The translations under genes and the position numbers were made by a program. A stretch of 64,000 nt of DNA from Nanobdellati archaeon (GTDB lineage: Archaea; EX4484-52; GLR71). Location: NCBI GenBank assembly GCA_019429005.1, contig JAHYJR010000001.1, forward strand, positions 40,663-104,662. The letters run 5' to 3'. Shown piece by piece: positions 17,101 through 63,893 of the stretch (position 1 is the first letter of the stretch; each line of letters opens with the position of its first letter). Below the pieces are notes generated by a model that had not been told where the DNA came from, did not search any database, and was given only the letters and a program-made list of their open reading frames with translations.

Positions 17101-17558
17101 AATAACACATCAAAAATTAAAAATACAAATATACTATTTAACTATACTTTTTATTTAACTAAATTAATTTTGTGAGATTCTATTTATATCAATTTCTGTA
17201 AATTTTAAAAAAGATAAAGAGGTGAGAATATACACTTTTTTGATCATATGCATAAACATCACAAAAAAGTGCTTTGGTGGTTGAATGCCCAACTATTTTG
17301 GTGGTTAAAAAATAGTGTAATAAATATATTGTTTATTCTATTTATAATGTTTTCGGTTTTATCAACAGTAAACTATTTAAACACCAACCACTCAAATTGA
17401 AAATCAATATACCAAAACAAAATCAATTAAATAAAAATTAAAATAATAACACATAAAAATTCATAAAATTATAAAATTTATAATATAAATAAAAAGAAAC
17501 ATAATCATTCTTTTAGTATTAAAAAAATATGTAATTTATAATCAATTAGGTGTATACT

Positions 17559-20595: not shown

Positions 20596-23500
20596 TCAAT
20601 AATCATATATCGTAAATGTCTGACCTTCGTATATTGCACTATTTCCAGAAAAATCTGTAGCATTTACAGAAATATAAACAATTCCTGGAACTGTTGTTAG
20701 TATTGGCACACCTGCAGTAACCAATGAACAGTTAAAACCATAATACTGTGATAACACAACACCAGAACTATCTTTTAATGCAACACAATTAACAACATCA
20801 GATTCAATCTCCTTTTGAATTACCTTTGCAGTCATACTTGAAAGATTTTCGGATGGAATAACAAACAACGATATTTTAGACATATCTGTACTTGTATAAA
20901 CTCTTGATGGGGACACAGATATAGATTTTATTGTTGGAGGTACTTTATCTGAAGGTGTAACTTTCCTCATTGCCACAGGACCAACATTTCCAGCTAAATC
21001 TACAGACATAACAGATACTTCATATTCTATACCATTTTTAAGATCCGTTAAATAATGTATTGTATTTCGTACATGATCCATATAGATAACACCATCTAAC
21101 GAAATTGTATAATAATTAATATCAGAATCATCTTCATTAGGTGTCCAATATAAATATACCTCACCACCTTTCTCAGTATTTTCAACATTTAAATTTTCAA
21201 CAACGTGTGGTGGTTTCATATCATATAAAATTGATACAGTATCTTTATGCTCAACACTCTCATTATCAAAACCAGATAATGTTATAGATATAGGACCTTC
21301 GATTTGTTCGGGCGCTTTATCAAATAATATCGCTAAATCAACAAGTTTCATTTTATTAGACTCAGCATCAACATCTGTAAGGATGATTTCCTCTTCAATT
21401 GCACCCGCAGCAGGTTTAATCAAAAGCCAATAATTACCATTAGTCAAATTTACCTTGAAAGAAGACGAATAATTGATTTCTATAACAGCCCCTGTAAGAT
21501 TATTAACAGAACTATTTTTTACTGAAGTAATTACTAAAGAATTACCCACACAAACACCCATACTACATTTATTTGAGATACATTGACAATCAGTTGTACA
21601 AGTATCATCTACAACCTTTTCAAACGTACAAGACTCATACATACAAATCTCTTTAGTTGACGCTTTTGGAGAAATGCATGTCAATTTTTCACCACCAAGA
21701 TAATTCCCACAAACCCCTACATCATCACATTTACCACATTGATTATCTTCAGTACAAGGCTCATTAAGTGACTTATAACAAGCATCATCAGGTTCAGAAT
21801 CAATCTTGACTCGCACAGCCCATTCACCTGCAAAACCAGCATCTAACAATGGCACAACATCACGCACCCAATCAACAATTGAAACATCTTCAGCATAATA
21901 TTCTACAGTTACAGTATAATCCATATCTTCATATAAAATATACGGCTCGCTACCAGATGTAAAATCGTCAGTATATTTATAAGTGTCATCAGAATCGCCA
22001 CCATCAAACCACTGTAAATGTCCTTCATCTACAAGACACGAACTGCTCCAAAAAGATTTACTATCTGAAGATATTTTAAACAAATCATCGTTCCCTACAA
22101 TACTTTTTGAATTGACATCAGACGCATTACAGCCATCAAGATCAATCTTAAAACTAGTACAAGGTAAATTTGTAGTTTTTGTATCAAATATACCAGTACC
22201 TTCTGGATTATCACCACCATATTCAGACTGACAAAGACATATTGCTTTTGAAACAGAATTTCGTATCGTCTCAATATCACCAATTACTTCAGTACCAACA
22301 TCTAACTCCCCTGATGCCAGACTTGAACATTTGGGTACACTATCTGTCTTAGTCGTCGTAAAGGATACGCTTTTTTTAGTATCATATTTATAAAACACGT
22401 TTGACCGCATAAATACAGTTTTCTGTGTTGTAACAGGAGCCTTAAGTGTATCATAAAAAAATGTGCAACCATACATCTTAAGCTGATTTGGGGCTAATAT
22501 TCGTTTCTCACTTTCAAAAGTGTATTCCGGTGTACCTATTAATTTTTTTACCGCGGCATCATAATCAATCTTATACACATACCAACCAGCTTCATCCTTT
22601 TCTGGTTGAGGTAACTGACAATCATCAGTCTCATAATAATTTGCACAACGAGAATCATCAGGTGAATAAAGTGTTTTTGTAACAGCATCATAACATCCCG
22701 CAGGAACAAGAACCTCTGGTAAATATATCTTCAATATCGCAAGTTCAGCTTCACCATCTTTCTGATTATAAATACCAAACGAAACTCTAAAACTATCTCT
22801 CGGTTCATATCTCGAAATAACTGGTATTGGCTGTTTTTTACTTGTCCATGTTGAAAGTGTAAACGGTCCTGCTGAGGTTAAAGACCGACCATCAAACCAT
22901 TTCATTTTACCTTGTTTTACTTGCTCATCATAAAGAGTTCCATCCATCACAGTAATATCATTTGTTCCACTCGTATCATAATGATAAATAACGTGTGCAT
23001 CAATATCAAATGCTTTTGAAGAACATTTTGGTGCAGTCACTAATAATGAATATAATCTAGGTTCTCCAGGTAACAAAGATCCAACGGATTCTTCGGCAGA
23101 AGCACTACTTGAACCACCAAGACCACCACCCCGACCTATACTACCCCCTAAAGTCACAAAATCCTCGCTACCTTTAGCATAGACCATAACTTCATTTGCA
23201 ATTGAAACACCATCATTTTTTACTTCAAACTGTATATCTACAAGACCTCCCGGATATACTGCAGAAGGGTATGCCGAAATACCTTTAAACTCAAGCGCAC
23301 TTGATGACCCTACCTGAATTACAGAATCTTTTTGTTGTTTTTCTAATTCTGCCTGTTCCGGATCTGAAAACCATAACAAAGAACTTGTAAAAGAATCAAT
23401 AAATGAATCAATCGCACTACCCCCTACTTGTTTAGCATCATGAGTTGCAAGTGTTGATTTATCTGAATCCATATTTGAACTCCAAAAATAACTTAATATA

Positions 23501-24948
23501 GGTAACAAGAAAATAACAATAAGTGCAACAATGCCAAGAATAAAAGACCATTTTAAAATAGATTTAATAATTTCCCATGAACTCTTCTTTGGAGACATAA
23601 CAGATCTTAATTTGTTTGTATAATCTGAATTTGAAACTTTTGCTTTCGCCGCACCTAAAGCACCACCCACAAAAAATGCAGAGTTTTGGGTATTTGATTC
23701 TGAAGAGTCATCTAAATCTGAAATTTCTTCGGAACCTATAGTTTCATCTGTTTCGGGAATACGGTTATCTTCAGGATATAACAATCCGGCCCCCGTATCA
23801 CCTGAAGAATTCAGTTTTTCTTTTTCTAATTTTTCGGCAGCATCCTTTTCAGCAGCATCCTTTTCAGCAGCATCCTTTTCAGCAGCATCCTTTTCAGCAG
23901 CATCCTTTTCACGTTCATTTTCAACCAATTCTTCAGCTTCTTTTTCACGCTCTTTTAATTGTTCTTCTGTAAGTTCAATTTTATCTTTTTCAGTTTCAAC
24001 CAATTCTTCAGCATCTTTTTCTACATGATCTTCATTTTCTTTTAAATCTTCATCATCATCATCTTCGCCTTCTGATTTACCAACTTCCTTCTCAGGTTCT
24101 TTTGGTTCTTCAGGTGTTTCTTCTTCATCTTCTTCTGCTTTCTGTTCTTCAACGGGTTCATCGCTTTCTGGAGCACCTGAAATCTTCTCATCTAACATTG
24201 AAACTTTCTCAAGTTCGGTTTCTTCAGCTTTAATTTCGGATTCATTCTCATGTATATCTTGAAAAGAACTTTCAACATCTTGTTCTGTGCTATCAACATT
24301 TTGACTAAGACCTGCTACAACAGAAGGATCAACATCAGAACCTGCATCTACAACTGCAGAATCAACATCTTCAGTTTTAGACACCTCTTGAGCATTTGCT
24401 TCTCCAGATTCAGCCGTTACTAGAGGATTACTCGAACGAGAATATGCTTGCGAAAACACTTCTGAACTACCTTGTGCAATGAAATTAATTGGATTCTCGG
24501 AACTACCCAACACCGGTCCTGTTGGCTCTTCAACAGCCTTCGGAATAGTTTCTTTTAAATTCTGAATATCCTCTTCAAACATTTTCAGATTATCAGCTTG
24601 ATTCGCTATAACCTCACGAGAGACCGTTTGTTCATTTAAAATATTTTCAAATAAATCATTATTTTCTACTTGAACGTTTTGTATTTCATTAACATTATCA
24701 TCAATAACGCCTACTTTTTCCTCCAATTTTGAGTGCGTTTCGTCAATATTTGGACTCTTTATATTATTATTAATATTCACATGTATCTCAGGTGAACCTC
24801 CAAAATCATTTTCAGCAGGCACTTCAGACGGCAAAAGACTTTCTTTTTTACGAGAAAAACGACCTAAAATACGTGATATTGCATTTTTTAAACGGACTTT
24901 ATTTGAGGGTTCAGAAACAACAGATTCTTCAGAATTTTCATCACCCAT
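20596..24948 (-). CDS. 1450-aa type II membrane protein: acidic disordered N-terminus, one TM helix, extracellular Ig-like/Cys-rich/FN3 domains
   Basis: E/D-rich first ~450 aa; TM WSFILGIVALIVIFLLPIL; CARDB-like VKNDG; Cys-rich block; FN3-like LYW...Y...LKNGIEYEVSVMSVDLAGN. Confidence 0.85.
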   Translation of the reverse strand: MGDENSEESVVSEPSNKVRLKNAISRILGRFSRKKESLLPSEVPAENDFGGSPEIHVNINNNIKSPNIDETHSKLEEKVGVIDDNVNEIQNVQVENNDLFENILNEQTVSREVIANQADNLKMFEEDIQNLKETIPKAVEEPTGPVLGSSENPINFIAQGSSEVFSQAYSRSSNPLVTAESGEANAQEVSKTEDVDSAVVDAGSDVDPSVVAGLSQNVDSTEQDVESSFQDIHENESEIKAEETELEKVSMLDEKISGAPESDEPVEEQKAEEDEEETPEEPKEPEKEVGKSEGEDDDDEDLKENEDHVEKDAEELVETEKDKIELTEEQLKEREKEAEELVENEREKDAAEKDAAEKDAAEKDAAEKDAAEKLEKEKLNSSGDTGAGLLYPEDNRIPETDETIGSEEISDLDDSSESNTQNSAFFVGGALGAAKAKVSNSDYTNKLRSVMSPKKSSWEIIKSILKWSFILGIVALIVIFLLPILSYFWSSNMDSDKSTLATHDAKQVGGSAIDSFIDSFTSSLLWFSDPEQAELEKQQKDSVIQVGSSSALEFKGISAYPSAVYPGGLVDIQFEVKNDGVSIANEVMVYAKGSEDFVTLGGSIGRGGGLGGSSSASAEESVGSLLPGEPRLYSLLVTAPKCSSKAFDIDAHVIYHYDTSGTNDITVMDGTLYDEQVKQGKMKWFDGRSLTSAGPFTLSTWTSKKQPIPVISRYEPRDSFRVSFGIYNQKDGEAELAILKIYLPEVLVPAGCYDAVTKTLYSPDDSRCANYYETDDCQLPQPEKDEAGWYVYKIDYDAAVKKLIGTPEYTFESEKRILAPNQLKMYGCTFFYDTLKAPVTTQKTVFMRSNVFYKYDTKKSVSFTTTKTDSVPKCSSLASGELDVGTEVIGDIETIRNSVSKAICLCQSEYGGDNPEGTGIFDTKTTNLPCTSFKIDLDGCNASDVNSKSIVGNDDLFKISSDSKSFWSSSCLVDEGHLQWFDGGDSDDTYKYTDDFTSGSEPYILYEDMDYTVTVEYYAEDVSIVDWVRDVVPLLDAGFAGEWAVRVKIDSEPDDACYKSLNEPCTEDNQCGKCDDVGVCGNYLGGEKLTCISPKASTKEICMYESCTFEKVVDDTCTTDCQCISNKCSMGVCVGNSLVITSVKNSSVNNLTGAVIEINYSSSFKVNLTNGNYWLLIKPAAGAIEEEIILTDVDAESNKMKLVDLAILFDKAPEQIEGPISITLSGFDNESVEHKDTVSILYDMKPPHVVENLNVENTEKGGEVYLYWTPNEDDSDINYYTISLDGVIYMDHVRNTIHYLTDLKNGIEYEVSVMSVDLAGNVGPVAMRKVTPSDKVPPTIKSISVSPSRVYTSTDMSKISLFVIPSENLSSMTAKVIQKEIESDVVNCVALKDSSGVVLSQYYGFNCSLVTAGVPILTTVPGIVYISVNATDFSGNSAIYEGQTFTIYDY
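23836..23910. repeat. Intragenic tandem repeat, 5 x 15 bp, encoding (EKDAA)5
   Basis: AGCAGCATCCTTTTC repeated on the + strand, one mismatch in the first unit. Confidence 0.96.
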
Positions 24949-41594: not shown

Positions 41595-44500
41595 ATGTCA
41601 CAAAAAAAAATTAAAAAAAACAAAAAAACGACATTCATGTACTTAAAAATAATATCCTTAATAATATTTATATTTCTTTTAATCCTCCCAAATACCTATG
41701 CTCAATCACCCGGACCAAAAATCCTTTTAGTTGATGATGATCATAACTTATATGATTATGACTTTAAAGAATATTATATAACAGCCTTAAGTTCTTATAA
41801 TTATGAAAACTTTACTGTAGATTCTCTAAATAATGGACCAACATATAACCAAATGAAAGATTATGATATAGTTATCTGGTTTACTGGAAAAACATCACAA
41901 CTATCTGAAATAATAACCTTGACTACTAAAGATGAAACAAATTTGATAGAGTATCTTGATAATGGAGGTAACCTTTTTATTAGCAGTTCTTTATTAGGTT
42001 TTGACCTTAAAGATAACCTACCTGATTATACTAGTATATTTTATAATAACTATTTACAAACAACATATAATTCTGTTAATACATACATATCTCTAACAAA
42101 TACAAATGATTCTGTAAGTCACAATTTAGAATTAAATTTAACACAAATACCAATAAACAATCTTCAAACTAAAATAGAATATAATCCAATAAGATATCCC
42201 AATATTAGCACCGTATATAAATCCGGCAATATTAAAGCAGCAATAAAAACAAATACAGAAACCTATAAAGTCGTGTATTTCGCATTTGGATTCGAAGCAG
42301 TTACAACATTTACAGGTGATTCAAAAACACCATCCAAATTAAGATCTGAATTAATGGTAAACATAATAAACTACTTATACACACCTGAAACAAATTCAAT
42401 CGTAATTGACCCACCAATAACTAGTGGAAATATCACAATCACTGCAAACTGTTATGATTCTGAGATATATTCAAACATAAAATCCGCAGAATATTATATT
42501 GATGATGATAAACAAAGTAATGGAAATAATATCCAATTATTCGCATCAGACGGAACTTTCAATAATTATAATGAATCAATAAATGCTACAACAAACACAA
42601 GTTCTCTAACAGGTGGTGAACACACAATATATATCCATTGTCAAGACAAAGACGGATTCTGGGGTAAATATGATAATAAAACATTCACAGTCAGTACAGA
42701 TCAACCAATAACACCACAAATAACTGTCTTAGATAATGCGAATGGATATATTAAAAGCGAAATAACACAAATAAATATTAGCAAGATAAACAATACAAAC
42801 ACATATACCGTATCATTTTCTTGTGATAATCTATTATTTAGTGATGAAAATAATTTATATAGCTCTGACAACGTTAAGGGGGGAGTTTTACAACCAATAG
42901 AAATAGATTTTCATACATTTATCATAGACACAACAGACTCTTCTATGGGTTGTAACCAAACAGATGGTTTAAAAACAATATATCTTCGTGCAAAAAGCTA
43001 TGCTGGTATAGAAAACACAACACATACAAGTGACACAACAATACTTGACCGAGTTACACCCGAATTCGTATATGTTAATGTAACAGACCCAGATACCTAT
43101 TATATGGCAGGAGATAATGTAACAATACAAACAAATCTGAGTGAACCAAATCTAATAGTAGTAGCAGACCTCTCAAAAATAAATACTAACTTTTCGTTCA
43201 CACAACAATTAAATTATATTGAAAATGGTCTATATAAATATACGACAGAAAATCTTGACGCAAACGAAATGATAGAAGGCTTAAAAATCATAAAGCTAAC
43301 AGCAACAGACCTTGCAGGAAATGTGAAAACAAATGAATCGCTTCAAATCACTATAGATAAAACAGAACCAGACACACCCACTATGACTATACTAAATTAT
43401 TTAGGATATACACTATATGAAAAACCAGAAATAACAATATCAACAATATATTCAGAAAATCCTGCAGATTATATGGCATTCTCATGTGATAATAATTACT
43501 TTACACCATGGTACCCAATCTCAACAAGTTTCAATCAATTTAATACAACAAATACAACCTATGGTTGTTCTGAAACTGATGGAAACAAAACAATCTTTAT
43601 TAAAGTAAAGGATTATGCAGGAAATATTAACGCAGAACAGAATTCAAAATCCGTCATACTTGATAGAGAAAAACCATCAATTGATTCGCAATTACCTACA
43701 AACAATTCAAATATACAAGATATAATTGAATTCAATACAAACATATCAGAGGATAATGTAATCAATATATTTACATACAATACAACAGAAAGTAACCACA
43801 TTTCTCCGCCTGCAATATACAAAAACAATACATTCGCATCATATCTATTCACACCCTCTTGGCTTGAAGAAGGTATAAATAATATAATGTTATTTATGAA
43901 TGATTTTGCAGGAAACATAAAAGAATATATTTATTCCTATAGAATCGATAACACAAACCCAATAACCACTAACAATTATACATTTACAGACTGGCGTGGC
44001 ACAAATCAAGACATCAATCTAACCTGTAATGATATTGAGGGTAGTGGTTGTAACACAACAAAATATTGTATAATAAATAACACAGACCCTCCATGCACTC
44101 CTAATACTATTGGTATGTACATTACAATAAATTGCAATCAAAATGAAGCATGCAATAAAAAGATTTATTATTATTCAACAGATCTTGCAAAAAATTATGA
44201 AACATTTAAATCAACAAACGAAATAAAAATAGATAAAAAACCACCAGTTATAACAATAAATACTCCTGAGAATGGACAAACCTATGCAGCTACAATAAAT
44301 ATACTTACCGAAATAAACGATTATGAAATTGGAGATATTTCCTATGTCAGTTATAATATAAACAATACAATAGCAAACGGAACATTAAACGAATCCTTAT
44401 CTTGGGACACAACATGGAACAGTAGTATTTACACTAATGGTACATTCAATTTAACAGTATTTGCAAACGATACATTAGGAAATAATATAACAAAATCAAT

Positions 44501-47500
44501 CATATTTTATATAGACAATAATCTACCTTCCGCAAATATTTACACACCAAATAAAATTTATACAAACAATAATAACATAACACTAAATCTTATGGCACAA
44601 AAAGAAAATGGTAATCTGAGCAATTGTTCATATTATATATATAATTTTACAGAAACTACAAACAGTTCTGAAAAAATAAATATTGAAAAAACAGAATGTA
44701 ATTTTACAGATAATATATTCATGTCATCATGGTATGATGGAAATTATACAATCAATTTTACAGCAATCGATATTTTATCAAATATTGCAACAGACAAATC
44801 TTGGTTCTATTTGGATAGAATATCACCAATTGTGGAACTTGACAATTCAATAAACAATACTTGGACAAAAAATACAATTCCAATTAATTACAATGCAACA
44901 GACTTAGTAAATATATTTGAATGTAAAATAAGATATAAAAATAATACAAATCCTTGGAGTGTATATAAAACAATAGATTGTGGTAATTATAAAACACATC
45001 ATTTTGAAACATCACAATGTCATGACAATGCTATTGCAAATTGTCAAATTGAACTTTATGTAAAAGATTTTTCAGGAAACATTGAAAATCAAAGTATTTA
45101 TATTAAAGTAGATAACAGTCCGCCAAATATCACAATTATTTCCCCTCCTGCAAACACATGGAACAATTCAAACTTTACTGTAACACACACAGAAACAGAT
45201 CCTCAAGGACAAATATGTTCATATAAAATATACGGTACTACAGCATCTAATTGGATGCCCCTAACATGTAATCAAAACATACTTGTTGATGCTGACACTT
45301 ATTGTGCTGGAACAACAAGCCTTTGTACAATATACATAAACTCTACAAATAATGCTGGTACAAGTTTATATGTAGCACGAACATATCAAATAGAAAGACA
45401 ACCTCCTGAAATTACAGAAATAACATTAGGAAAATCAATTGTAAAGGACAATAATATCCTTGAAATAAATATCAGTGGAACAGACACACATAATAATATA
45501 GATACTATATATGCAGATATCTTAAATACTACAGGACATATCGTAAATACAATACAATTCACACAAATTGATACAAATAAATATGGTGGAACTTACACAG
45601 TCTCAGGAAATGAAAACGGACTTTTTACAATAAACATAACTACGAATGATACACTTGGAAACTCAATTTATAATGATAGTAAAACATTCCTTGTTAAAAA
45701 TATAGCACCAATATCATCTAATTATTCATTTGATATTACTACAGATACAATTTACAATGACACAAGAATCATCTATAATAACACAATATTGTTCTTATTA
45801 AACCTAACAGACGCAGTTGGTGTAAATACAGCAACCATCACCTTAAAAACAGACCAATTTGAAACCAACCATACGCTCACACCACAAAATAATAATTATA
45901 TTAATGATATTTGGACAACACAAATCACAACAACACAGATTCAAGGTAAATATACTATATCTAAATTATATATTAACGACACTCTTGGAAATTCAAAAAT
46001 ATTAAATGAAACAGAAATCAACAAAAGTTTCCTTGTAGTTGTACCAAAAACAAATGTACAATTTAATACAAATGAAAAAAATGCGACAAGAAGTGGAACC
46101 ACAAACCAATTAAATCTAACAATTAATTTCAATAAAACCTTATCAAACTCAACAATAACACTTTATATACCACCAAATAACGCATCATACAATAATACAA
46201 ATCCAACATACCTAAACAATTCAAATTTTGTCTGCACCACACAATTCGGAACTTGTAACATTTATAATATTAGCACAAATGAAAACCAAACATATTACTT
46301 AATATTTAATTTCACAGGACCAATTCAAGAAATTACAATTTTAAATACAAACATTTTCTCATCAAATAAACTTCAAGATACTAATTATACTTGGTACATC
46401 AAACATAATGAAAATGAATATAATCAAATAACAAAAATAACTGCACCAAAAATAAACATAACTAATTTAACTTGCAATGATTTAGAATCCTGTCAAATTA
46501 ACCAAAATACAAACTTCAGCATTCAAACATACATCAAAAATGAATATATTTCTGAAAATTATACAGGTGATGCATATAACGTATCAGTTACATATATTCG
46601 TGACAATACCAACATAACAAAAAATATAGGCGATATAAACTCAACAATTCAAAAAAACATCAGCTTTGATGATTTTATTGAAACCCCCGGAAATTATATA
46701 ATAAATATAATTGCAAAAGATAACATAACACAAGAATACATAGATCAAAAATCATATACAATTACAATTAAAGATAAAAATGCACCAAATTGGATTTCAA
46801 CATCAATAAATAAAAATAAAGATTATATAAATAACACATTAACAATCACAACACGATTTTCAGATAATATAGGAGTTACAAATGCATTAATCACAATAAA
46901 AAAACCAGACGGAAATGAAACAAATTACACTATGATTTTATCTGGTTCTGGTTCAATACAGACCGGATATGTTTATAATAATGCTACAGCACAAATAGGT
47001 CTATACAATATTACAAGAATATATGCTAATGATGCTGAAAACAATAAAATGTCAAAAAGTGACTTAAATTTAACATTTGAGATTAAACAACTTGAAATTT
47101 ATTTAAACCTTAATGAAACAATCCTAAATGTAACAAATTCATTAAATATTGAAGCAATAATTAAAAATAACATAACAAATATTGAAACCGTATATGCTGA
47201 TATACTTAAACCGCGAGGACAAAAAGAAACAATAATATTATCACAAACATCAAGTTCGGAAAATAGTACAATTTATACAACAGATTATACAAATATCACT
47301 CAATCTGGAGATTATACAATCAATATAACTGTCAATGCTAATGGCTATGCGACAAACACAAGTGACTTCTTTGTAAATTATGGTTTTTTAAACATTATAT
47401 TCGCAGATGGTGTTGATGACACATTAATGGTACCTGTAAATAGAACATATAATCACAGTATTTATATAATACCACAAAACGGAGATCTTATTGATATTAA

Positions 47501-50066
47501 TTCAATATTATCAATTACAAATCAAAGTGTTATAAATATTACACAAAATGACATATTAAATAAATATATCGGAAACATATCCTATGAAGATTATAAAAAC
47601 GGATATCTTATTCAATGGGACTTAAATACAACAACAATTGATTTTACAAACATTTCAATAAATATAACATCGGTTTACAGCAATAAAACACAAATAATGC
47701 TTATAAATATAACAGAAGAAGATTATGAAAAACCAACAATAAACTCATTTAACTCAATAAACATAACAAATCTTTATGAAATTTTAACAATCACAGTTAA
47801 TGTAACAGATAATACAATTATAAAACAAGTTAAATCTGAAATTACCTATCCTGATAATACAACATATAATTTTACAGGTAATAAAATTAGTCCAAATCTT
47901 TATGAAATATCTTTCTCAAACACAAATCAAACTGGTAACTATTCATATAAAATATATGCAAAAGATATTGCAGACAATGAAAACGAATCTACAATTAACA
48001 AATATTTCAATGTAACAAATGAATACCATATTGATATTATAACAGATTTTGATGCTTACAATAAAGGCGAAGATGTAAATATAACAATTATAACATATAA
48101 CATAAATAATGAAAGTATATCTAATTTTAATACAACATTAAATCTCACCAAACCAGGTAACATAAATGTATCTTTAATAGATAATAAACTAGAAAAAGAA
48201 TCCGTATATTCAATTAAAACAACAGATGCACCTTTAACACTTAATCCTACATTTTTAGCATACACATTAGATGCAAATGTTTCAAAAAATGGAAATATAG
48301 GATATAATACAAAAACATTCAACGTAACAAAAAATCTTGTTACGGAATTTATATCTTTATCAGAAGGCCAATATTTTGCAACAAATTCACAAATACCAGT
48401 TAGTATGAAAATTACAAACATTAACGGTAACGAAATTTATGACGTTATTGTGTCTGCAAAATGCACTAAATGTCTCTACCCTAATATATTACTCACAAAA
48501 GTAACCTCAACTACATACTCTAATCTAGAGCAAATTATTTCGCCTGAAACATATGAAAGTTTTAGTATACTAATACGAGCAACTGATTTTTATGATAATG
48601 GATATGGTGATGAAGATACTGTCGTACTCACAACAATACCACAAACTATAATACAAAACAATAATCAGGGTGGTAGTAGTAGTAGTACAAATAATCCTGG
48701 TCTTTTAGACACATTATTTAATATGTTCTTTGATAATAAAACAGAAGAAAATTATGCAGATTTCACATTTAATCTTAAAAGAGATGAAATTAGCTTGATA
48801 CGAGGTACAGATACAACAATTATAACAACACTTGAAAACACAGGAACAATAGATCTTGAGATTACAAGTTATATCAAAAAAGATTGTTGTGAGGTCACAC
48901 TCGAAAAAACATTCAATATATCTAAAAAAAATTCAATTGATATACCAATTCAAATAGACACGACACTTAATACAACACCGGGAAATTATCTTATAACAAT
49001 TTACATGAAATCTGTAGAACTCGCTAAATCAAAAACAATTAAACTTCAAATTAATGCAAATCCAAATATTGAAAAAATATATGACATTGAATATGCTCTA
49101 CAAAATATTGAAAAAGCAATTGAATTATATAAACGTTCTGGACTTAACACTAAAACAGTAGAAACTAAATTTGAAGAAATTAAAAAAATACTTGATGACG
49201 GAAAAAATGCAATAATAACGGATGATAATGACAAATTACAATTATCTGCAAATAATGCACAAATTGAAATAATGAAACTTCGAATAGAAATTGCAAAACT
49301 TGAAACAAAATGGTTCCTTATTAAAAACAAATGGAATATCTTAGCACTAATATTTTTCATCACAATGTTATATTTGGCATCAACAAGATTTATTATACCT
49401 TATATACTTATCACAAAAGATATACATAACTTAAAATCAAAAGAATTAAGTCTTGCACGTGAACAAAAATCAACAGAAATTGAATATTTCAAAAGAGTCA
49501 TAGATAAAATAACATTTACAAGAATCATGACAACAAAACATGGTGCACTTACAGATGTAAGAACAAAAATAAAATATTTAAACGGATGTATAACAAAACT
49601 TCAACATTTTGAAACATTATCAACTGAAGAACTTGGTGAAAAATATGATTATAAAAAAATGATAAAAGAACAAAAAGAAAAAATTAATAATAAAATTAAA
49701 GAGCTAAAACAGAATATAATTGAAAACATAAATGAAAAAAGAAAACAAATAATAGAAAAAATAAACATCCTTTTGAAAAAGAAATCTTTTGATGACCCTA
49801 ATTATAATAACAATAAACAAACCAAAAAAACAGAACTTAAAACTGATACACAAACAACACAGGCACAAAAAACCGAAAATATAAAACACAATGAAACTGG
49901 TAAAAACACATCAACAAATACATTGAAAACACTCCAATTTGATATGTCTGCTACAAATTCAAAAGACGAAAATAAAAATAATGAAACCACAAAAAACGAA
50001 AATGATCTGGATTCTAAAATGAAAAATCTTGATGATATTTTCAAAAAATTTAAAAAAAATCAATAA
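41595..50066 (+). CDS. Giant (2823 aa) type I membrane cell-surface glycoprotein with many Ig-like repeats
   Basis: Signal peptide; ILLVDDD N-terminal domain; repeated D(x)AGN/DTLGN and D..(P)P.I modules; many NxT/S sequons; GGSSSS linker; coiled coil; TM ILALIFFITMLYL; cytoplasmic tail. Confidence 0.88.
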   Translation: MSQKKIKKNKKTTFMYLKIISLIIFIFLLILPNTYAQSPGPKILLVDDDHNLYDYDFKEYYITALSSYNYENFTVDSLNNGPTYNQMKDYDIVIWFTGKTSQLSEIITLTTKDETNLIEYLDNGGNLFISSSLLGFDLKDNLPDYTSIFYNNYLQTTYNSVNTYISLTNTNDSVSHNLELNLTQIPINNLQTKIEYNPIRYPNISTVYKSGNIKAAIKTNTETYKVVYFAFGFEAVTTFTGDSKTPSKLRSELMVNIINYLYTPETNSIVIDPPITSGNITITANCYDSEIYSNIKSAEYYIDDDKQSNGNNIQLFASDGTFNNYNESINATTNTSSLTGGEHTIYIHCQDKDGFWGKYDNKTFTVSTDQPITPQITVLDNANGYIKSEITQINISKINNTNTYTVSFSCDNLLFSDENNLYSSDNVKGGVLQPIEIDFHTFIIDTTDSSMGCNQTDGLKTIYLRAKSYAGIENTTHTSDTTILDRVTPEFVYVNVTDPDTYYMAGDNVTIQTNLSEPNLIVVADLSKINTNFSFTQQLNYIENGLYKYTTENLDANEMIEGLKIIKLTATDLAGNVKTNESLQITIDKTEPDTPTMTILNYLGYTLYEKPEITISTIYSENPADYMAFSCDNNYFTPWYPISTSFNQFNTTNTTYGCSETDGNKTIFIKVKDYAGNINAEQNSKSVILDREKPSIDSQLPTNNSNIQDIIEFNTNISEDNVINIFTYNTTESNHISPPAIYKNNTFASYLFTPSWLEEGINNIMLFMNDFAGNIKEYIYSYRIDNTNPITTNNYTFTDWRGTNQDINLTCNDIEGSGCNTTKYCIINNTDPPCTPNTIGMYITINCNQNEACNKKIYYYSTDLAKNYETFKSTNEIKIDKKPPVITINTPENGQTYAATINILTEINDYEIGDISYVSYNINNTIANGTLNESLSWDTTWNSSIYTNGTFNLTVFANDTLGNNITKSIIFYIDNNLPSANIYTPNKIYTNNNNITLNLMAQKENGNLSNCSYYIYNFTETTNSSEKINIEKTECNFTDNIFMSSWYDGNYTINFTAIDILSNIATDKSWFYLDRISPIVELDNSINNTWTKNTIPINYNATDLVNIFECKIRYKNNTNPWSVYKTIDCGNYKTHHFETSQCHDNAIANCQIELYVKDFSGNIENQSIYIKVDNSPPNITIISPPANTWNNSNFTVTHTETDPQGQICSYKIYGTTASNWMPLTCNQNILVDADTYCAGTTSLCTIYINSTNNAGTSLYVARTYQIERQPPEITEITLGKSIVKDNNILEINISGTDTHNNIDTIYADILNTTGHIVNTIQFTQIDTNKYGGTYTVSGNENGLFTINITTNDTLGNSIYNDSKTFLVKNIAPISSNYSFDITTDTIYNDTRIIYNNTILFLLNLTDAVGVNTATITLKTDQFETNHTLTPQNNNYINDIWTTQITTTQIQGKYTISKLYINDTLGNSKILNETEINKSFLVVVPKTNVQFNTNEKNATRSGTTNQLNLTINFNKTLSNSTITLYIPPNNASYNNTNPTYLNNSNFVCTTQFGTCNIYNISTNENQTYYLIFNFTGPIQEITILNTNIFSSNKLQDTNYTWYIKHNENEYNQITKITAPKINITNLTCNDLESCQINQNTNFSIQTYIKNEYISENYTGDAYNVSVTYIRDNTNITKNIGDINSTIQKNISFDDFIETPGNYIINIIAKDNITQEYIDQKSYTITIKDKNAPNWISTSINKNKDYINNTLTITTRFSDNIGVTNALITIKKPDGNETNYTMILSGSGSIQTGYVYNNATAQIGLYNITRIYANDAENNKMSKSDLNLTFEIKQLEIYLNLNETILNVTNSLNIEAIIKNNITNIETVYADILKPRGQKETIILSQTSSSENSTIYTTDYTNITQSGDYTINITVNANGYATNTSDFFVNYGFLNIIFADGVDDTLMVPVNRTYNHSIYIIPQNGDLIDINSILSITNQSVINITQNDILNKYIGNISYEDYKNGYLIQWDLNTTTIDFTNISINITSVYSNKTQIMLINITEEDYEKPTINSFNSINITNLYEILTITVNVTDNTIIKQVKSEITYPDNTTYNFTGNKISPNLYEISFSNTNQTGNYSYKIYAKDIADNENESTINKYFNVTNEYHIDIITDFDAYNKGEDVNITIITYNINNESISNFNTTLNLTKPGNINVSLIDNKLEKESVYSIKTTDAPLTLNPTFLAYTLDANVSKNGNIGYNTKTFNVTKNLVTEFISLSEGQYFATNSQIPVSMKITNINGNEIYDVIVSAKCTKCLYPNILLTKVTSTTYSNLEQIISPETYESFSILIRATDFYDNGYGDEDTVVLTTIPQTIIQNNNQGGSSSSTNNPGLLDTLFNMFFDNKTEENYADFTFNLKRDEISLIRGTDTTIITTLENTGTIDLEITSYIKKDCCEVTLEKTFNISKKNSIDIPIQIDTTLNTTPGNYLITIYMKSVELAKSKTIKLQINANPNIEKIYDIEYALQNIEKAIELYKRSGLNTKTVETKFEEIKKILDDGKNAIITDDNDKLQLSANNAQIEIMKLRIEIAKLETKWFLIKNKWNILALIFFITMLYLASTRFIIPYILITKDIHNLKSKELSLAREQKSTEIEYFKRVIDKITFTRIMTTKHGALTDVRTKIKYLNGCITKLQHFETLSTEELGEKYDYKKMIKEQKEKINNKIKELKQNIIENINEKRKQIIEKINILLKKKSFDDPNYNNNKQTKKTELKTDTQTTQAQKTENIKHNETGKNTSTNTLKTLQFDMSATNSKDENKNNETTKNENDLDSKMKNLDDIFKKFKKNQ

Positions 50067-58827: not shown

Positions 58828-59702
58828 ATTAAATGGTATATTTTTGCATTAGGATGTGCTTTTTTAACTTCACTTGCTGCAATTGTAGAGAAAAAAACAT
58901 TAATAAATGAGCACGCAATGGAATTTTCAACCGTTCTCGCAATATTTAATTTTATAATTGCCTTACTCTTACTAAAATTTGCAGATTTTAACATATTAAC
59001 CAATTCACTAAATTTAATCCTATTAATTTATACTGCTTCACTTCTTGGAAGTATCGCCTTTTAATGGTCGCAAAAAGCCTAAGACATATGAACATATCAG
59101 TTGTTTCGCCGTTATTAAATTTTAATCCGGCTATAGTTGCAATACTTGCATTTCTGATCCTTGGAGATAAATTGACAACAATCCAAATTAGTGGTATGGT
59201 TATACTTATGTTTGGTGCATATTTACTTGAAACAAAAAAAGGAAATAATAATTTTATACAGACTATGAAAAAACTAATAGCCTTAAAATATATACATTAT
59301 CTTGGTATTTCCTTTGTGTTTTATGGGTTCAGTTCTATTATTGATAAGTTTGTATTGGGTTTTATAACACCTATTACCTATATTGTTGTTATCCAATTTT
59401 TTATAGCGATAAATTTTGTAATAATGATATATCTTTTCCATAATCGTATGATCGGAATCAAAAAGGGTATAATGCGCGCAGGTAAATGGATTTTTATAGT
59501 TGCAATATTTACAACATCATATAGACTTCTTCAGTCACAAGCAATCTCTATGGCTTATATCAGTCTAGTTATTCCAATTAAAAAATTAAGCACCATATTT
59601 TCAACAATAATTGGTGGTGAAATGTTCCATGAAAAACATCTTCTTAAAAAAACGATTGCATGTGTTGTTATGCTCGTTGGAGTTTATCTTATAATAATTT
59701 AA
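58828..59702 (+). pseudogene. EamA/DMT-family transporter, split by a frameshift (58828-59064 and 59064-59702)
   Basis: Upstream frame KWYIFALGCAFLTSLAAIVEKK...LLGSIAF* continues as (L)MVAKSLRHMNISVVSPL...LAFLILGD in another frame; one extra T in the T4 run at 59059-59062 would restore a single ORF. Confidence 0.75.
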
Positions 59703-59775
59703 TAACAAATTGAAAATTAATTTATACCTAAAAAATACAGCTAAAACATATAAAATTATAAAATGGAAGATACTT

Positions 59776-61092
59776 ATGGATAAAACAGCAACATTTATAG
59801 TTAAATCGGGACAATGTTCTTGGGGTAAATGCATATATTGTGGTTACGGAAAAATTGTTGGCTTAGATGCAAATATAAATAAAATAAATTCAGATATTGA
59901 TTATTTTTTTGAAAAAAATAAAGATATAACTACACTTAAAATTTTTGGCTCAGGAAGTTTTGTTGATGAAAAGCAATTTCCAAAAGAATCACAAAAATAT
60001 CTTGTAGATAAATGTCTAAAAAATAACATAAAAAACCTATTTTTTGAAAGTCGTCCGGAATTTATAACCGAAAAAAATCTAAAAATTTTCAAAAACTTAA
60101 ATTTCACTGTTGCAATAGGTCTTGAAATTGCAGACAATACAATTCTTGAAAAACTAAACAAAGGTTTCAAAATAGAAGATTACATTAAAGCAACAGAAAT
60201 TATCAAAAAATCAGGTGGTAATTCAAGAACATATCTTCTTGTAAACCCTCCCTATATTAATAATGTAGAATCTGAACTTAACAAATCTGTTGAATTTGTG
60301 CTTAAACACTCAGACACAATTGTTTTAATAAACCTATATCCTCACGCAAATGCAGATATGCTTAATTTGTATCTGGATTTAAAATGGAAACCTCTTAATA
60401 AGACCGAATTTGATAAAGTTACAAAAAAATGGAAAGATACAAATAATATTGAATTTGACTTTGAAACATTCATTTTTTCACCAAGAATACCTGAACATCT
60501 GCGAGCCGACCTTTATGGTGTAGGAGAAAAATGTCTTATGCATCCCCATTATGAAATTTGGCAAGATTATTTTAATAGATTCTATAATATACCAACTATA
60601 AAAGAATTTATTTTGTTCTTACCTTGTGCATTCAGAAAACCCTATTCAAACTCAAAAACACATAAAGATATATTAAAACAACTTATTAGACTTCCACAAT
60701 ATCCAAAAATACATCAAGTCATGGTTTCAAGTCCAGGTGTAATCCCTAGGGAATTTGAAAACAAATACCCTTTTAAATCCTATGATTGGCCAGAATGGCA
60801 GGAAACTGCTGATATTAAAAAACAATATATTGAGATTACTGCAAAACGTATTGAAGAATATCTTAAAACACACAAAGATACATACAAAAAAGTTTTCGTA
60901 TATCTTAAACCTACATCAGAAAGTTACAAAGCGGTTGAAATCGCTTGTTCAAACCTAAAAATACGACTTATAAGCTGTATAGATAAAAATACATATCAAA
61001 AAATATTGGATAAAGGAAAAGAAAAACAAATCCTTACGGATCGACTTGCTCTTGATTCGCTTTTAAAAACATTAAAAAAGGAAGCTAAATAA
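59776..61092 (+). CDS. RaSEA-like radical SAM protein fused to an ArcS/DUF5591-like domain (candidate archaeosine synthase)
   Basis: GQCSWGKCIYCGY, KIFGSGSFVD, ESRPEFI, VAIGLE, NKGF, YLLVNPP; C-terminal FLPCAFRKPYSNSKTH, SSPGVIPRE.E..YP...YD. Confidence 0.85.
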   Translation: MDKTATFIVKSGQCSWGKCIYCGYGKIVGLDANINKINSDIDYFFEKNKDITTLKIFGSGSFVDEKQFPKESQKYLVDKCLKNNIKNLFFESRPEFITEKNLKIFKNLNFTVAIGLEIADNTILEKLNKGFKIEDYIKATEIIKKSGGNSRTYLLVNPPYINNVESELNKSVEFVLKHSDTIVLINLYPHANADMLNLYLDLKWKPLNKTEFDKVTKKWKDTNNIEFDFETFIFSPRIPEHLRADLYGVGEKCLMHPHYEIWQDYFNRFYNIPTIKEFILFLPCAFRKPYSNSKTHKDILKQLIRLPQYPKIHQVMVSSPGVIPREFENKYPFKSYDWPEWQETADIKKQYIEITAKRIEEYLKTHKDTYKKVFVYLKPTSESYKAVEIACSNLKIRLISCIDKNTYQKILDKGKEKQILTDRLALDSLLKTLKKEAK

Positions 61093-61095
61093 AAA

Positions 61096-62403
61096 TTAGC
61101 CTACAATTTTCTGATCTTTAACTGATATATATGGTGTTACAACACCATCAACCTGTTTTATTACATCTGATGTTCCTACAATCTTCTTAAGAACATCATA
61201 AACATTTCCAACATACATCCCACCCTTTGTAGCTTTTCTAATTACACCTTTCTCAATTATAAAAGCATTAAGTAAAGTTAAACTAAAATCACCTGTAACT
61301 GAATTTGACATGTGTGACCCCATTACAGAATATATTATAATACCCGAATCAACACTAGCTATTAACTTATCTAAAGATTTATTTGAACTGTTAATACAAA
61401 AATTAGTTGTATTAATTGAAGGTTGTACTGTAAAATCACCTACAGCATTCCCTGTAGATTTAACATTATCTTTTTGTCCCCTGATACAATCATATAAAAA
61501 TCCTTTAAATACACCTTTTTCAATTATTTTTGTTTTTTGTCTTGGCATCCCTTCACGATCAAAAGCATATGAACCAATACCACCTGACATAAGCCCATCA
61601 TCTATAATTGAAACAGATTCAGATGCTATCATCTGACCAATTTTACCTTCTAAATAAGACCTTCCAGACTGCAAATTTTCTGCATTTATTGCGGAAATAA
61701 ATGTATTATTTAATATATCTGACACAACGGACGGATGTAATATTACAGTCTGTAATTTTGATACAACTTGCTTTTTATTCTGTGCCAATACAACTTTACT
61801 TGAAATATCTTTTACAAGATCGATTGTATCTAAACTTTTTAATTTTGTAGATTCGCTTGAACCATAAAAGACAGAATCTTTAAATGATATTTCAAAATCA
61901 GTACTACAAACAGTTTTTTTTCCTGAATGTTTTAAACCAGCTGTATTCTGTATTTTACTTAAATATGATACTAACCCTATTGAATTATTTGTAAGATAAA
62001 TCTCCTTATTATAATTTTTAATTGTATTCAACATTTCCTGAACCATATCAATAAGTGCATCATCTTCAATATCTAACACATTTTTATCAAATAAATTTTT
62101 AGGTTTAGACACAGATATTTGTTCTGGAAATGACAAAAGTTCTTGATTTGCATAAGCTGCATTTTTTATGGCATAATCAAAATATTTATTCAACTGCGAA
62201 ACATCTGTAGTGTATGCATAACCAATCTTTTGACCTACAATCACACGCATACCATACCCTGAAATAATCTTTTTTGAAATTGATGTAACTTTATCATTTT
62301 CAACTGTTAATGTCGTAGAATCTTGACTATTTGAAAATATTTCTGCTTCAACATTTAGTTTTTTTGCCGCACTTAATATTTTATCAATATTATAATCATC
62401 CAT
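61096..62403 (-). CDS. pmbA: TldD/PmbA family protein, PmbA (TldE)-like
   Basis: G.GMRV...GYAY, FDREG, TGNA, N.VTGDFSL; lacks HExxxH; follows tldD. Confidence 0.88.
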   Translation of the reverse strand: MDDYNIDKILSAAKKLNVEAEIFSNSQDSTTLTVENDKVTSISKKIISGYGMRVIVGQKIGYAYTTDVSQLNKYFDYAIKNAAYANQELLSFPEQISVSKPKNLFDKNVLDIEDDALIDMVQEMLNTIKNYNKEIYLTNNSIGLVSYLSKIQNTAGLKHSGKKTVCSTDFEISFKDSVFYGSSESTKLKSLDTIDLVKDISSKVVLAQNKKQVVSKLQTVILHPSVVSDILNNTFISAINAENLQSGRSYLEGKIGQMIASESVSIIDDGLMSGGIGSYAFDREGMPRQKTKIIEKGVFKGFLYDCIRGQKDNVKSTGNAVGDFTVQPSINTTNFCINSSNKSLDKLIASVDSGIIIYSVMGSHMSNSVTGDFSLTLLNAFIIEKGVIRKATKGGMYVGNVYDVLKKIVGTSDVIKQVDGVVTPYISVKDQKIVG

Positions 62404-62416
62404 AAATAATCACCAC

Positions 62417-63826
62417 TTAATCTCCGCGTCCACCTACAAGCATACTTTTTATCCTAAGATGTGGTCCTCCATTATCAACGGGAACTGATTGTCCATCTTT
62501 CCCACACATTCCTCCCATATCAACTGAACAATCATTTCCAACAGCATCAATATTTTTTAAAACTTCTAAAATATTTCCAGAAAGTGAACAATCCCGTATC
62601 ATCTTTGTCTTTTGTCCATTTTTAATTATAAACCCCCTCTCTATACCAAAAGTAAAATCTCCTGTAGACGGACTTACCTGACCACCCGTAAAACCTTGCA
62701 AATACAAACCATCCTTAACTGTAGATAACATATCATCCAAAGAATAATCACCTTTATCAAAATAAGTATTACTCATTCTTGGTATTGGCCTATAAGCAAA
62801 CGATTGTGCTCGTGCATTCCCCGTAGATTTACATCCAAATTTAGATGCAGTCTGCCTTGTATGAAGATATGAATTAAGCACACCATTTTTAATTATTTCT
62901 GTTTTTTGTGATTTTACACCTTCATCATCATATGAATAATAACCATTTTTATTTTTCAAACTGCCATTATCTATTACAGATACAAAATCAGATGCTATTT
63001 TTTTACCTAAAAATCCTTTTAAAACAGATGCATTACTTAATACTGTATCTGCTTCAGATGCATGTCCAACCGCTTCATGAGCAAAAAGTCCAGTTATATT
63101 TGGATGTAATATTACAGTCATATTTCCTGATGGTGGTAATTCTGCATCAAGAAGACTTAATGCAATTTTAGTTGTTTTTATTGCAACTGATACCGGATCT
63201 TTTAAAATTAATTTGTCAAAACCACCTAAACTTAATATTTTACCATATGATTGCTGTATATTATTTTCTTTTTTAACTATAGGTACTACTACATAATTAA
63301 CTGAAACACCATTATTTGTTATGGATGTGCCTTCAGAATTAATATATATATTTTTTGATGATTGATCCGAATATATTGATTTGACTGTCCTGACAAAAGG
63401 TGATACTTCTTTTGCAGACGAATTTGCTGTTTTAATAATATCTATTTTCTCTTTTATATCAACATCATCTGGATAAATATTTACTTTTGTTGTTAATGTA
63501 TCTTTTATAACTTTTGATTCGCTCAAAACAGATTTATCTTCAACATTTCCACGGCATCTTATTGATTTTGCAATCTTTACTGCATTCTCTGCAACAGATA
63601 AAATATCACTAATATTGTTTGATGATGCAAAACCAAAAAAACCGTTATGCAAAACACGCACAGAAAAACCCGATATTTGGCCACTATTAACTTCTTCAAT
63701 ATTTGCGTCTTTTAATCTAATTATATTTGTTCTTTTATTTTGAAACCTAAAATCTGTAAAATCCACACCTAATTTAACGCAATATTTAATAGCTTTATCT
63801 GCCAGATCATATATATTTTCATCCAT
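62417..63826 (-). CDS. tldD: TldD metalloprotease
   Basis: HEAVGHASEAD, YDDEG, TGNARAQ, PRMSNTY, GGQV, CGKDGQ.VPV..GGP. Confidence 0.95.
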   Translation of the reverse strand: MDENIYDLADKAIKYCVKLGVDFTDFRFQNKRTNIIRLKDANIEEVNSGQISGFSVRVLHNGFFGFASSNNISDILSVAENAVKIAKSIRCRGNVEDKSVLSESKVIKDTLTTKVNIYPDDVDIKEKIDIIKTANSSAKEVSPFVRTVKSIYSDQSSKNIYINSEGTSITNNGVSVNYVVVPIVKKENNIQQSYGKILSLGGFDKLILKDPVSVAIKTTKIALSLLDAELPPSGNMTVILHPNITGLFAHEAVGHASEADTVLSNASVLKGFLGKKIASDFVSVIDNGSLKNKNGYYSYDDEGVKSQKTEIIKNGVLNSYLHTRQTASKFGCKSTGNARAQSFAYRPIPRMSNTYFDKGDYSLDDMLSTVKDGLYLQGFTGGQVSPSTGDFTFGIERGFIIKNGQKTKMIRDCSLSGNILEVLKNIDAVGNDCSVDMGGMCGKDGQSVPVDNGGPHLRIKSMLVGGRGD

Positions 63827-63893
63827 AAGAATACACAAAATGATTAATGGATAATATATAATATATAGTTAACTATTTTTAAAAAATAAAAAA

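Follow-up and report, generated by a model that had tools for sequence, protein, structure and literature searches.

A RaSEA-Like Radical SAM Domain Joined to an ArcS C1 Domain: A Candidate Single-Chain Archaeosine Synthase of DPANN and Other Archaea

Introduction

We report here a gene of a Nanobdellati archaeon whose product carries, on one chain of 438 amino acids (aa), an N-terminal radical S-adenosylmethionine (SAM) domain of the RaSEA type and a C-terminal domain matching the C1 domain of ArcS. The gene lies in a stretch of 64,000 nucleotides of contig JAHYJR010000001.1 (assembly GCA_019429005.1, positions 40,663 to 104,662 of the forward strand), and “the window” below always means this whole stretch. 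The product, called P0001, is a real, conserved and uncharacterised variant of a known system. We give a probability of about 0.75 to the reading of P0001 as an archaeosine synthase in a single chain, which would take over from TgtA and depend on salvaged preQ0; its chemistry, lysine as its donor and tRNA as its substrate are inferred. P0001 is a member of a large public protein family and is not confined to this genome.

Archaeosine (G+) occurs at position 15 of tRNA in nearly all archaea. To our knowledge, the last steps of its formation are documented only in a few cultivated lineages, where they involve ArcS-RaSEA, QueF-like or Gat-QueC; the ArcS-RaSEA complex of Thermococcus kodakarensis was reportedly characterised by Yokogawa et al. 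in 2019. In this organism, ArcS puts lysine on preQ0-15 and RaSEA turns the resulting preQ0-Lys into G+, ArcS being inactive outside its complex with RaSEA; the preQ0 nucleoside is the smallest substrate that ArcS takes, and a 5′-phosphate speeds up the reaction (Fujita 2024, PMC11298593). The C1 domain is the catalytic core of ArcS, is independently encoded in some archaea and phages, and has PC-x3-KPY-x2-S-x2-H as its specific motif (Cui 2023, PMC10516641); QueF-like and Gat-QueC are alternative archaeosine-forming enzymes of Crenarchaeota (PMC7694415).

The two-enzyme system, the C1 core and the stand-alone C1 proteins are already in print. The first-pass annotation of the window, a model's reading of the letters alone, had singled out the small C-terminal domain as the lysine-transfer module; the domain is indeed the core of ArcS, but it was not new as such (PMC10516641). 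As for the fusion of RaSEA with DUF5591, no description of it was found in the literature searched, which did not extend to Yokogawa 2019, Phillips 2010 and Phillips 2012; the text of PMC11298593 contains neither “fusion” nor “fused”.

Domain Architecture of the Fused Protein

The gene and its parts are as follows, in window coordinates:

59776..61092 (+): fused RaSEA-like radical SAM / ArcS-C1 gene, 438 aa plus stop, with ATG 59776 as the likely start
59776..60450 (+): radical SAM domain, aa 1 to about 225, six beta-alpha units; the boundary at aa 225 is approximate
59815-59841 (+): bases of the cluster ligands C14, C19 and C22 (CX4CX2C), a Cys triad invariant in 32 of 32 aligned sequences
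60451..61089 (+): ArcS-derived part, aa about 226-438, made of a pre-C1 helix HPHYEIWQDY (aa 256-265) followed by C1/DUF5591
60622..60663 (+): PC-x3-KPY-x2-S-x2-H, the ArcS C1 signature, P283 to H296; bases computed from the start

The open reading frame (ORF) extends from an in-frame TTG as 59710..61092 (+), and reading from ATG 59776 yields the 438 aa of P0001. This ATG agrees with the N-termini and the lengths (417-447 aa) of 31 aligned homologues; TTG 59710 is a possible alternative start, to which the homologues lend no backing.

The first-pass annotation had placed a RaSEA-like radical SAM domain and a minimal ArcS-like domain on one chain, and profile searches match both families there, at a level far from what chance would give. 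Pfam assigns Radical_SAM (PF04055) to aa 12-163 (46.8 bits, cut-off 29.5) and DUF5591 (PF17884) to aa 264-409 (71.7 bits, cut-off 26, E 7.7e-20). The best NCBIfam match of the N-terminal half is RaSEA (TIGR01210; aa 2-182, 117.3 bits, E 7.7e-34), covering only profile positions 13-205 of 313, and that of the C-terminal half is ArcS (NF040592; aa 226-400, 71.3 bits, E 6.3e-20), covering only positions 245-411 of 575. The anticipated pair of TIGR01210 and DUF5591 is, thus, present, with the reserve that TIGR01210 scores under its own cut-off.

Taken as a full-length family member, P0001 is neither a RaSEA, for want of score and of coverage over all 313 positions, nor an ArcS, since it has neither the 440-bit score nor the four-domain architecture (TGT-like N-terminal domain, C1, C2 and PUA). 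What it does have is the three-Cys cluster motif and the SAM-binding blocks of RaSEA, though with a different Cys spacing, and, for ArcS C1, the PC-x3-KPY-x2-S-x2-H signature together with PF17884 over cut-off. All the motifs that had been named from the sequence were located in P0001: besides the cluster and C1 motifs listed above, these are FGSGSFVDEKQ (aa 57-67), ESRPEFI (aa 91-97), AIGLE (aa 113-117), NKG (aa 128-130) and SSPGVIPREFENKYPFKSYDW (aa 317-338). The lack of a TGT-like barrel and of a PUA domain, noted from the sequence, was borne out as well, as neither a TGT barrel nor TGT_C2 nor PUA was detected in P0001 by the Pfam and NCBIfam searches.

When P0001 is compared by BLASTP with P0241, a near-canonical ArcS that scores 425.8 bits on NF040592, the alignment takes in the pre-C1 helix as well as the C1 core, with LLLPCSARKPYSRSKTHK opposite LFLPCAFRKPYSNSKTHK and ITSP-GVVPRELEQYFPANSYD opposite VSSP-GVIPREFENKYPFKSYD; in the same comparison, the TGT-like N-terminal domain, C2 and PUA of ArcS have no counterpart in P0001. 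A solved protein, AF0587 (PDB 2q07), aligns with aa 274-353 (E 4.7e-10), across the C1 motif.

A Large and Conserved Family

A word-indexed search of public proteins gave 347 matches, and the architecture and identity counts given here were made on the 120 listed. The fused architecture is present in at least 120 public clusters: among the matches listed, 114 carry PF04055 and PF17884, 5 carry PF17884 only and 1 has an additional PF02186. Their lengths range from 400 to 469 aa, and their identity with P0001 is 44-62% over 89-100% of the query (119 other clusters). Databases name them “DUF5591 domain-containing protein”, “radical SAM protein”, “archaeosine synthase” or “radical SAM enzyme (TIGR01210 family)”. 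P0001 shares with them the domain order, the length, CX4CX2C and the C1 motif, and aligns with them over its full length. After clustering at 50%, about 12 full-length representatives stand at the top of the list.

The closest public relatives of the fused gene come from metagenome-assembled genomes (MAGs) labelled Nanohaloarchaea or Nanobdellati (DPANN). The spread is much wider, as judged from a pattern scan of species genomes in which 160 relatives were confirmed; the lineage labels of the 80 loci kept are distributed as follows:

Altiarchaeota: 24
Aenigmatarchaeota: 10
Thermoproteota in the wide sense (Korarchaeia-type, Thermofilaceae, Desulfurococcales, Thermoproteales, Culexmicrobium, Bathyarchaeota): 10
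Micrarchaeota: 3
Woesearchaeota: 2
Nanoarchaeota: 2
Iainarchaeum: 1
Asgardarchaeum: 1
Rest: Nanohalo- labels, Nanobdellati, Euryarchaeota-type labels and unclassified archaea

Conservation extends over both halves of the protein. In a family alignment of 32 sequences, the mean column identity is 57%, and the residues invariant in all 32 include C14, C19, C22, S59-G60-S61, E91, G115-L116-E117 and K129-G130 in the N-terminal half, and C284, K288-P289-Y290, S293, H313, S318, G321, P324 and Y336-D337-W338 in the C-terminal half. Among the 120 listed proteins, CX4CX2C occurs in 119 (the sole exception is truncated at its N-terminus), C-x3-KPY-x2-S in all 120, and the strict PC-x3-KPY-x2-S-x2-H in 112.

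Relation to Canonical RaSEA and to Other Known Enzymes

As a reference for canonical RaSEA, we used stand-alone proteins of 319-368 aa, 20 of 21 of which score 267-381 bits on TIGR01210. Ten of them were aligned with 8 fused proteins and 3 proteins of other architectures, and motifs and cysteines were checked in all 20. The SGSF, ES(R)PE, GLE and NKG blocks are common to the fused and canonical types, with SGS, E91, GLE and K129 invariant across both. The cluster motif is more compact in the fused type, as had been noticed from the sequence: canonical RaSEA has 7-9 residues between the first two cysteines in 19 of 20 proteins (CX7-9CX2C), the exception being P0204, which can be read as CX4, whereas the fused type has CX4CX2C. 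Canonical RaSEA also has an N-terminal extension that puts its first cluster Cys at residue 34-79, against residue 14 in P0001. A further difference lies at the C-terminus, where 18 of the 20 canonical proteins carry a CxxC...CxC module of four cysteines that is absent in the fused family; HNCxxC was found in none of the 120 listed fused proteins. As a side remark on the canonical type, its (HN)CxxC...CxC module (P0157-P0223) could be a second metal site.

A quick maximum-likelihood tree (IQ-TREE) was built with 65 radical SAM domains, leaving out P0204, P0128, P0131 and fragmentary matches; it was rooted on one long Elp3 outgroup, so that the position of the root is uncertain. The fused radical SAM domains group in a clade apart (43 rows, SH-aLRT 99), beside that of canonical RaSEA (20 rows, SH-aLRT 95) and not within it. 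Because of this separation, the fused family is taken to be an old branch in its own right rather than the product of canonical genes joined recently.

In two proteins, the order of the modules is reversed. In P0156 (680 aa), a C1-like part (PF17884, 23.9 bits for a cut-off of 26) precedes a RaSEA-like domain in which the four-Cys module is retained; P0170 (497 aa) runs straight from C1, C2 and PUA of ArcS into a RaSEA of the canonical type, and is probably fragmentary or the result of reading through two neighbouring genes. Repeated fusion in differing orders is in agreement with a physical and functional partnership of the two modules. RaSEA-like radical SAM proteins of yet another kind were seen in two genomes of the same GTDB phylum, in L097 (G004:C103:375-2099, minus strand) and at G022:C58:7011-7823, in open frames of 574 and 578 aa; they score 139 and 146 bits on TIGR01210, under cut-off, with no match to the ArcS model listed at either place, and the one in G004 has a long N-terminal extension plus a further stretch after its RaSEA-like part.

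Among characterised systems, the ArcS-RaSEA complex is the nearest: it has the same two catalytic modules and TgtA as the enzyme of the preceding step, and the association is obligatory, in a complex there and in one chain here. It differs in size, with about 575 aa plus about 330 aa against a single polypeptide of 438 aa, P0001 being devoid of the TGT-like domain, C2 and PUA of ArcS and of the N-terminal extension and CxxC...CxC module of RaSEA. Stand-alone C1 proteins, namely the phage and viral ArcS2 (Vibrio phage nt-1, STSV-2) and the archaeal C1-only or split ArcS such as AF0587, are likewise minimal cores lacking the TGT-like domain; however, ArcS2 works on DNA with DpdA and needs no radical SAM partner in E. 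coli (PMC10516641), AF0587 keeps more C-terminal domains in a chain of 306 aa, and the C1 of P0001 shares its chain with a radical SAM domain and goes with a TgtA of the tRNA type. The radical SAM domain of Elp3 (TIGR01211; PDB 6iad, 8pty) is the closest solved fold, and the aligned archaeal Elp3 chain also has CX4CX2C, but P0001 has no GNAT/KAT domain and scores 26 bits for Elp3 versus 117 bits for RaSEA. QueF-like and Gat-QueC share with the fused protein the proposed role (preQ0-15 to G+15) but belong to unrelated folds and families, and neither was found in the genome studied here; the fused gene is also present in MAGs labelled Thermofilaceae, Desulfurococcales and Thermoproteales.

Archaeosine Genes in the Genome and in Its Phylum

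The genome is a 1.08-Mb archaeal assembly in 15 contigs, 93.55% complete, and every absence reported for it is bounded by this figure; the archaeal genes of the window include those of an A-type ATPase, RadA and Cdc48. The upstream step of the pathway is encoded in the window, as the first-pass annotation had noted:

17550..19472 (+): tgtA, archaeosine tRNA-guanine transglycosylase, 640 aa; TIGR00432 494.6 bits (cut-off 350); TGT, C2 and PUA domains

This is the sole TGT-family gene of the genome. The earlier expectation that separate arcS, RaSEA, QueF-like and Gat-QueC genes would be missing holds for the whole assembly. A profile search for a separate ArcS found none: DUF5591 is over cut-off in P0001 and, weakly, in the C1 domain of TgtA itself, a third match (20.7 bits) being under cut-off. 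The best RaSEA-like match is P0001, followed by two weak radical SAM proteins. No QueC, QueF or QueD/PTPS scores over cut-off; the lack of QueC is what excludes Gat-QueC, and without QueC, QueD and QueF the preQ0 must come from outside.

We then looked at the 42 species genomes of the same GTDB phylum. One has to bear in mind that these genomes are related and mostly incomplete, so that the counts describe a pattern and are not a statistical test. The fused gene gives a strong match (full-length or cut at a contig end) in 31 genomes, weak radical SAM cross-matches alone in 4 and nothing in 7, and TgtA is found in 33. The two occur together in 28 genomes and are both missing in 6, including G017 (91% complete); when only the 10 genomes at least 90% complete are considered, 9 have both, the exception being G017 with neither. 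The two genes share a contig and lie within 4 kb of each other in 20 of the 28 genomes, and in 13 of these 20 they are divergent and less than 1 kb apart. The pathway tie to tgtA that had been suggested from a single window is, thus, upheld by both neighbourhood and co-occurrence. ArcS and RaSEA are over cut-off in none of the 42 genomes. Genuine QueC (>180 bits) is present in only 4 of the 42, all from one genus, so that most of the phylum would need preQ0 from outside. A side observation concerns G007, labelled “Methanosarcinales archaeon” at NCBI, in which the fused gene is found twice, once on a contig of 2.3 kb with 60% identity to the gene of the window and once as a split copy with 50%; this could be due to mixed binning or to a mislabel.

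Five genomes from outside the phylum were also searched (labelled Korarchaeia-type Thermoproteota, Asgardarchaeum, Altiarchaeales, Desulfurococcales and Thermofilaceae); in each, the fused gene is the sole RaSEA-like match, with none over cut-off. Their further DUF5591 matches are either TgtA or small C1-only ORFs (222-261 aa); those of the Thermofilaceae and Asgard genomes, considered as possible canonical ArcS, turned out to be TgtA. Stand-alone DUF5591-like ORFs were noticed, in MAGs that have the fused gene as well, at L094:1496-2278 (G045:C143, 261 aa, Desulfurococcales) and L095:1075-1740 (G043:C28, 222 aa, Asgardarchaeum). Of 77 related loci, 19 have a TgtA-family gene within 5 kb, and the commonest upstream neighbours are a helix-turn-helix (HTH) protein (26) and TgtA (7); in L064 and L065, both from Thermoproteota, tgtA comes straight after the fused gene and is read from the same strand.

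Predicted Structure

The AlphaFold2 model of P0001, built from the 32-row alignment, is compact (mean pLDDT 94.7, pTM 0.87). Six beta-alpha units reach to about residue 190, and a helical connector links them to the alpha/beta C1 domain, which begins near residue 270. In Foldseek searches of the PDB, the N-terminal half of the model is nearest to the radical SAM domains of Elp3 (8pty_C, E 2.9e-8; 6iad, 5.9e-8), and the C-terminal half matches 2q07 (E 1.6e-7, 163 columns). A structure of the ArcS-RaSEA complex, which Fujita 2024 (PMC11298593) calls for, was not among the PDB sequence and Foldseek matches.

Proposed Function and Alternative Explanations

The following sequence of events is proposed. 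TgtA would exchange G15 of tRNA for preQ0 taken up from outside. The C-terminal C1 domain would then add an amine donor to the nitrile of preQ0-15, this donor being probably the epsilon-amino group of lysine by analogy with the ArcS of T. kodakarensis. In the N-terminal domain, a [4Fe-4S] cluster held by C14, C19 and C22 would convert SAM into a 5′-deoxyadenosyl radical, with which the domain would remove the lysine moiety and leave the amidine of archaeosine. The fusion would make covalent what is elsewhere an obligate partnership of two subunits. Since PUA, C2 and TGT-like domains are all missing from the fused protein, the specificity for position would come from TgtA, which puts preQ0 at position 15 only, and the fused enzyme would recognise the local nucleotide.

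What the data show directly is which domains the protein has, how well their motifs are kept, that the alternative enzymes were not found and that the gene is tied to tgtA; all of this favours the single-chain synthase. Because ArcS is active only with RaSEA and C1 is the core of ArcS, the protein can be read as a covalent ArcS(C1)-RaSEA unit; and because no other G+ route was found, among the families searched, in any of the 42 phylum genomes, which mostly keep TgtA, the fused enzyme is the simplest completion of G+ formation.

A number of points weigh against this reading. Both halves score far under the equivalog cut-offs, at 117.3 bits versus 212.15 for RaSEA and 71.3 versus 440 for ArcS; taken together, the partial profile coverage, the missing four-Cys module and the separate clade mean that the radical step could differ. 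As to the donor, glutamine, asparagine or NH4+ reportedly serve the ArcS of Methanocaldococcus jannaschii (work cited by PMC11298593), and the phage ArcS2, which is C1 only, gives dG+ in E. coli without RaSEA (Cui 2023, PMC10516641), so that lysine is not the sole possible donor. At the genome level, tgtA is not adjacent to the fused gene here, lying about 40.3 kb upstream. Neither of the known preQ0 transporters YhhQ/Vut_1 and QueT was found in the genome, nor were the preQ0 synthesis genes. In the phylum, the fused gene occurs without detected TgtA in 3 genomes (G007, G020, G032) and TgtA without the fused gene in 5 (G002, G005, G008, G022, G031), the co-occurrence counts being limited by the relatedness and incompleteness of the MAGs.

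A rival reading is that of another 7-deazaguanine product or substrate, which could be an amino-acid adduct of preQ0 that is retained, the free base, a nucleotide, or DNA, the last after the example of the phage DpdA/ArcS2; the radical chemistry would then be other than C-N cleavage. The radical SAM domain does stand outside the canonical RaSEA clade, with another Cys spacing, no four-Cys C-terminal module and a RaSEA score under the equivalog cut-off; C1-only ArcS2 acts on DNA in phages (Cui 2023, PMC10516641), and ArcS accepts substrates at the nucleoside level (Fujita 2024, PMC11298593). However, the sole TGT-family gene of the genome is a tRNA-type TgtA with PUA and there is no DpdA-like second TGT gene, the fused gene and tgtA are tightly linked, and among the families searched there is no other G+ route in the 42 genomes, most of which keep TgtA. 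We consider such a change of product or substrate unlikely.

How a protein with no RNA-binding domain would hold its tRNA is a natural question, and the first-pass annotation had suggested that it perhaps borrows TgtA. In a fuller version of this idea, the minimal enzyme would dock on TgtA and use its C2 and PUA domains to hold the tRNA, in a transient archaeosine “modificosome”; the arrangement of the two genes would suit it, divergent and <1 kb apart in the 13 phylum genomes and consecutive in L064 and L065. Against it, the ArcTGT of T. kodakarensis does not co-purify with ArcS-RaSEA, and ArcS works on the preQ0 nucleoside 5′-phosphate without the tRNA body (PMC11298593); moreover, neighbouring genes of one pathway need not have products that bind each other, and the two genes are about 40 kb apart in this genome. 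A complex prediction that paired TgtA (aa 1-560, with 16 aligned rows) and the fused protein (with 32) returned a score of 0.00 and counts as “no answer”, neither for nor against binding. No support was thus found for the borrowing of TgtA, and docking of this kind appears improbable to us.

Finally, that P0001 would be the RaSEA-equivalent (beta) subunit only, its C1-like domain being an inactive docking module and the amine transfer being left to some other, unrecognised protein, deserves very little credence: canonical RaSEA does need an ArcS partner (PMC11298593) and small stand-alone DUF5591 proteins do occur in some genomes with the fused gene (G045:C143, G043:C28), but C284, K288, P289, Y290 and S293 are kept in 32/32 aligned and 120/120 listed proteins, which is unexpected for a dead domain, the other DUF5591 of the genome is only the weak C1 of TgtA, and ArcS is over cut-off in 0/42 phylum genomes.

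Coming back to the single-chain synthase acting after TgtA, it can be extended into a broader and far more tentative picture, which we are inclined to doubt as a whole. The family might be a minimal, self-sufficient archaeosine synthase, in which a 438-aa chain with neither RNA-binding domain nor second metal module does both amine transfer and radical cleavage on preQ0-15. It might then be the main G+ route across DPANN, Altiarchaeota and parts of Thermoproteota and Asgard, working in most of this phylum on preQ0 scavenged from the host and taking its specificity wholly from TgtA. The large euryarchaeal ArcS and RaSEA might be elaborations of the same modules or a separate solution made out of them.

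If the single-chain reading is true, the family would explain how many uncultivated lineages without ArcS-RaSEA, QueF-like or Gat-QueC finish their archaeosine. It also indicates which parts of ArcS and RaSEA are dispensable. With its compact single chain and its confident model, the protein is a structural target that would show how the two active sites are arranged. Lastly, a genome of about 1.1 Mb that keeps TgtA and the fused enzyme without preQ0 synthesis genes implies that preQ0 is taken up from outside.

Neighbouring Genes and Other Features of the Window

Just upstream of the fused gene lies an EamA-type transporter ORF, 59064..59702 (+), of 212 aa, which is presumably short for its family; an AT-rich spacer of 73 bases separates its end from the ATG of the fused gene. 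It was considered as a preQ0 importer and dropped, as EamA is not among the annotated neighbour families in the 77 related loci. There are no tRNA genes within the window. On the other side, a pair of PmbA/TldD metallopeptidase genes, 61096..63838 (−), converges on the fused gene, the stop codons being 3 bases apart. The window also contains two very large ORFs, 41595..50066 (+) of 2823 aa, with one weak match to the Ig domain Big_7, and 20596..24948 (−) of 1450 aa, with no Pfam match; they may encode large surface proteins, of a kind common in small-genome archaea.

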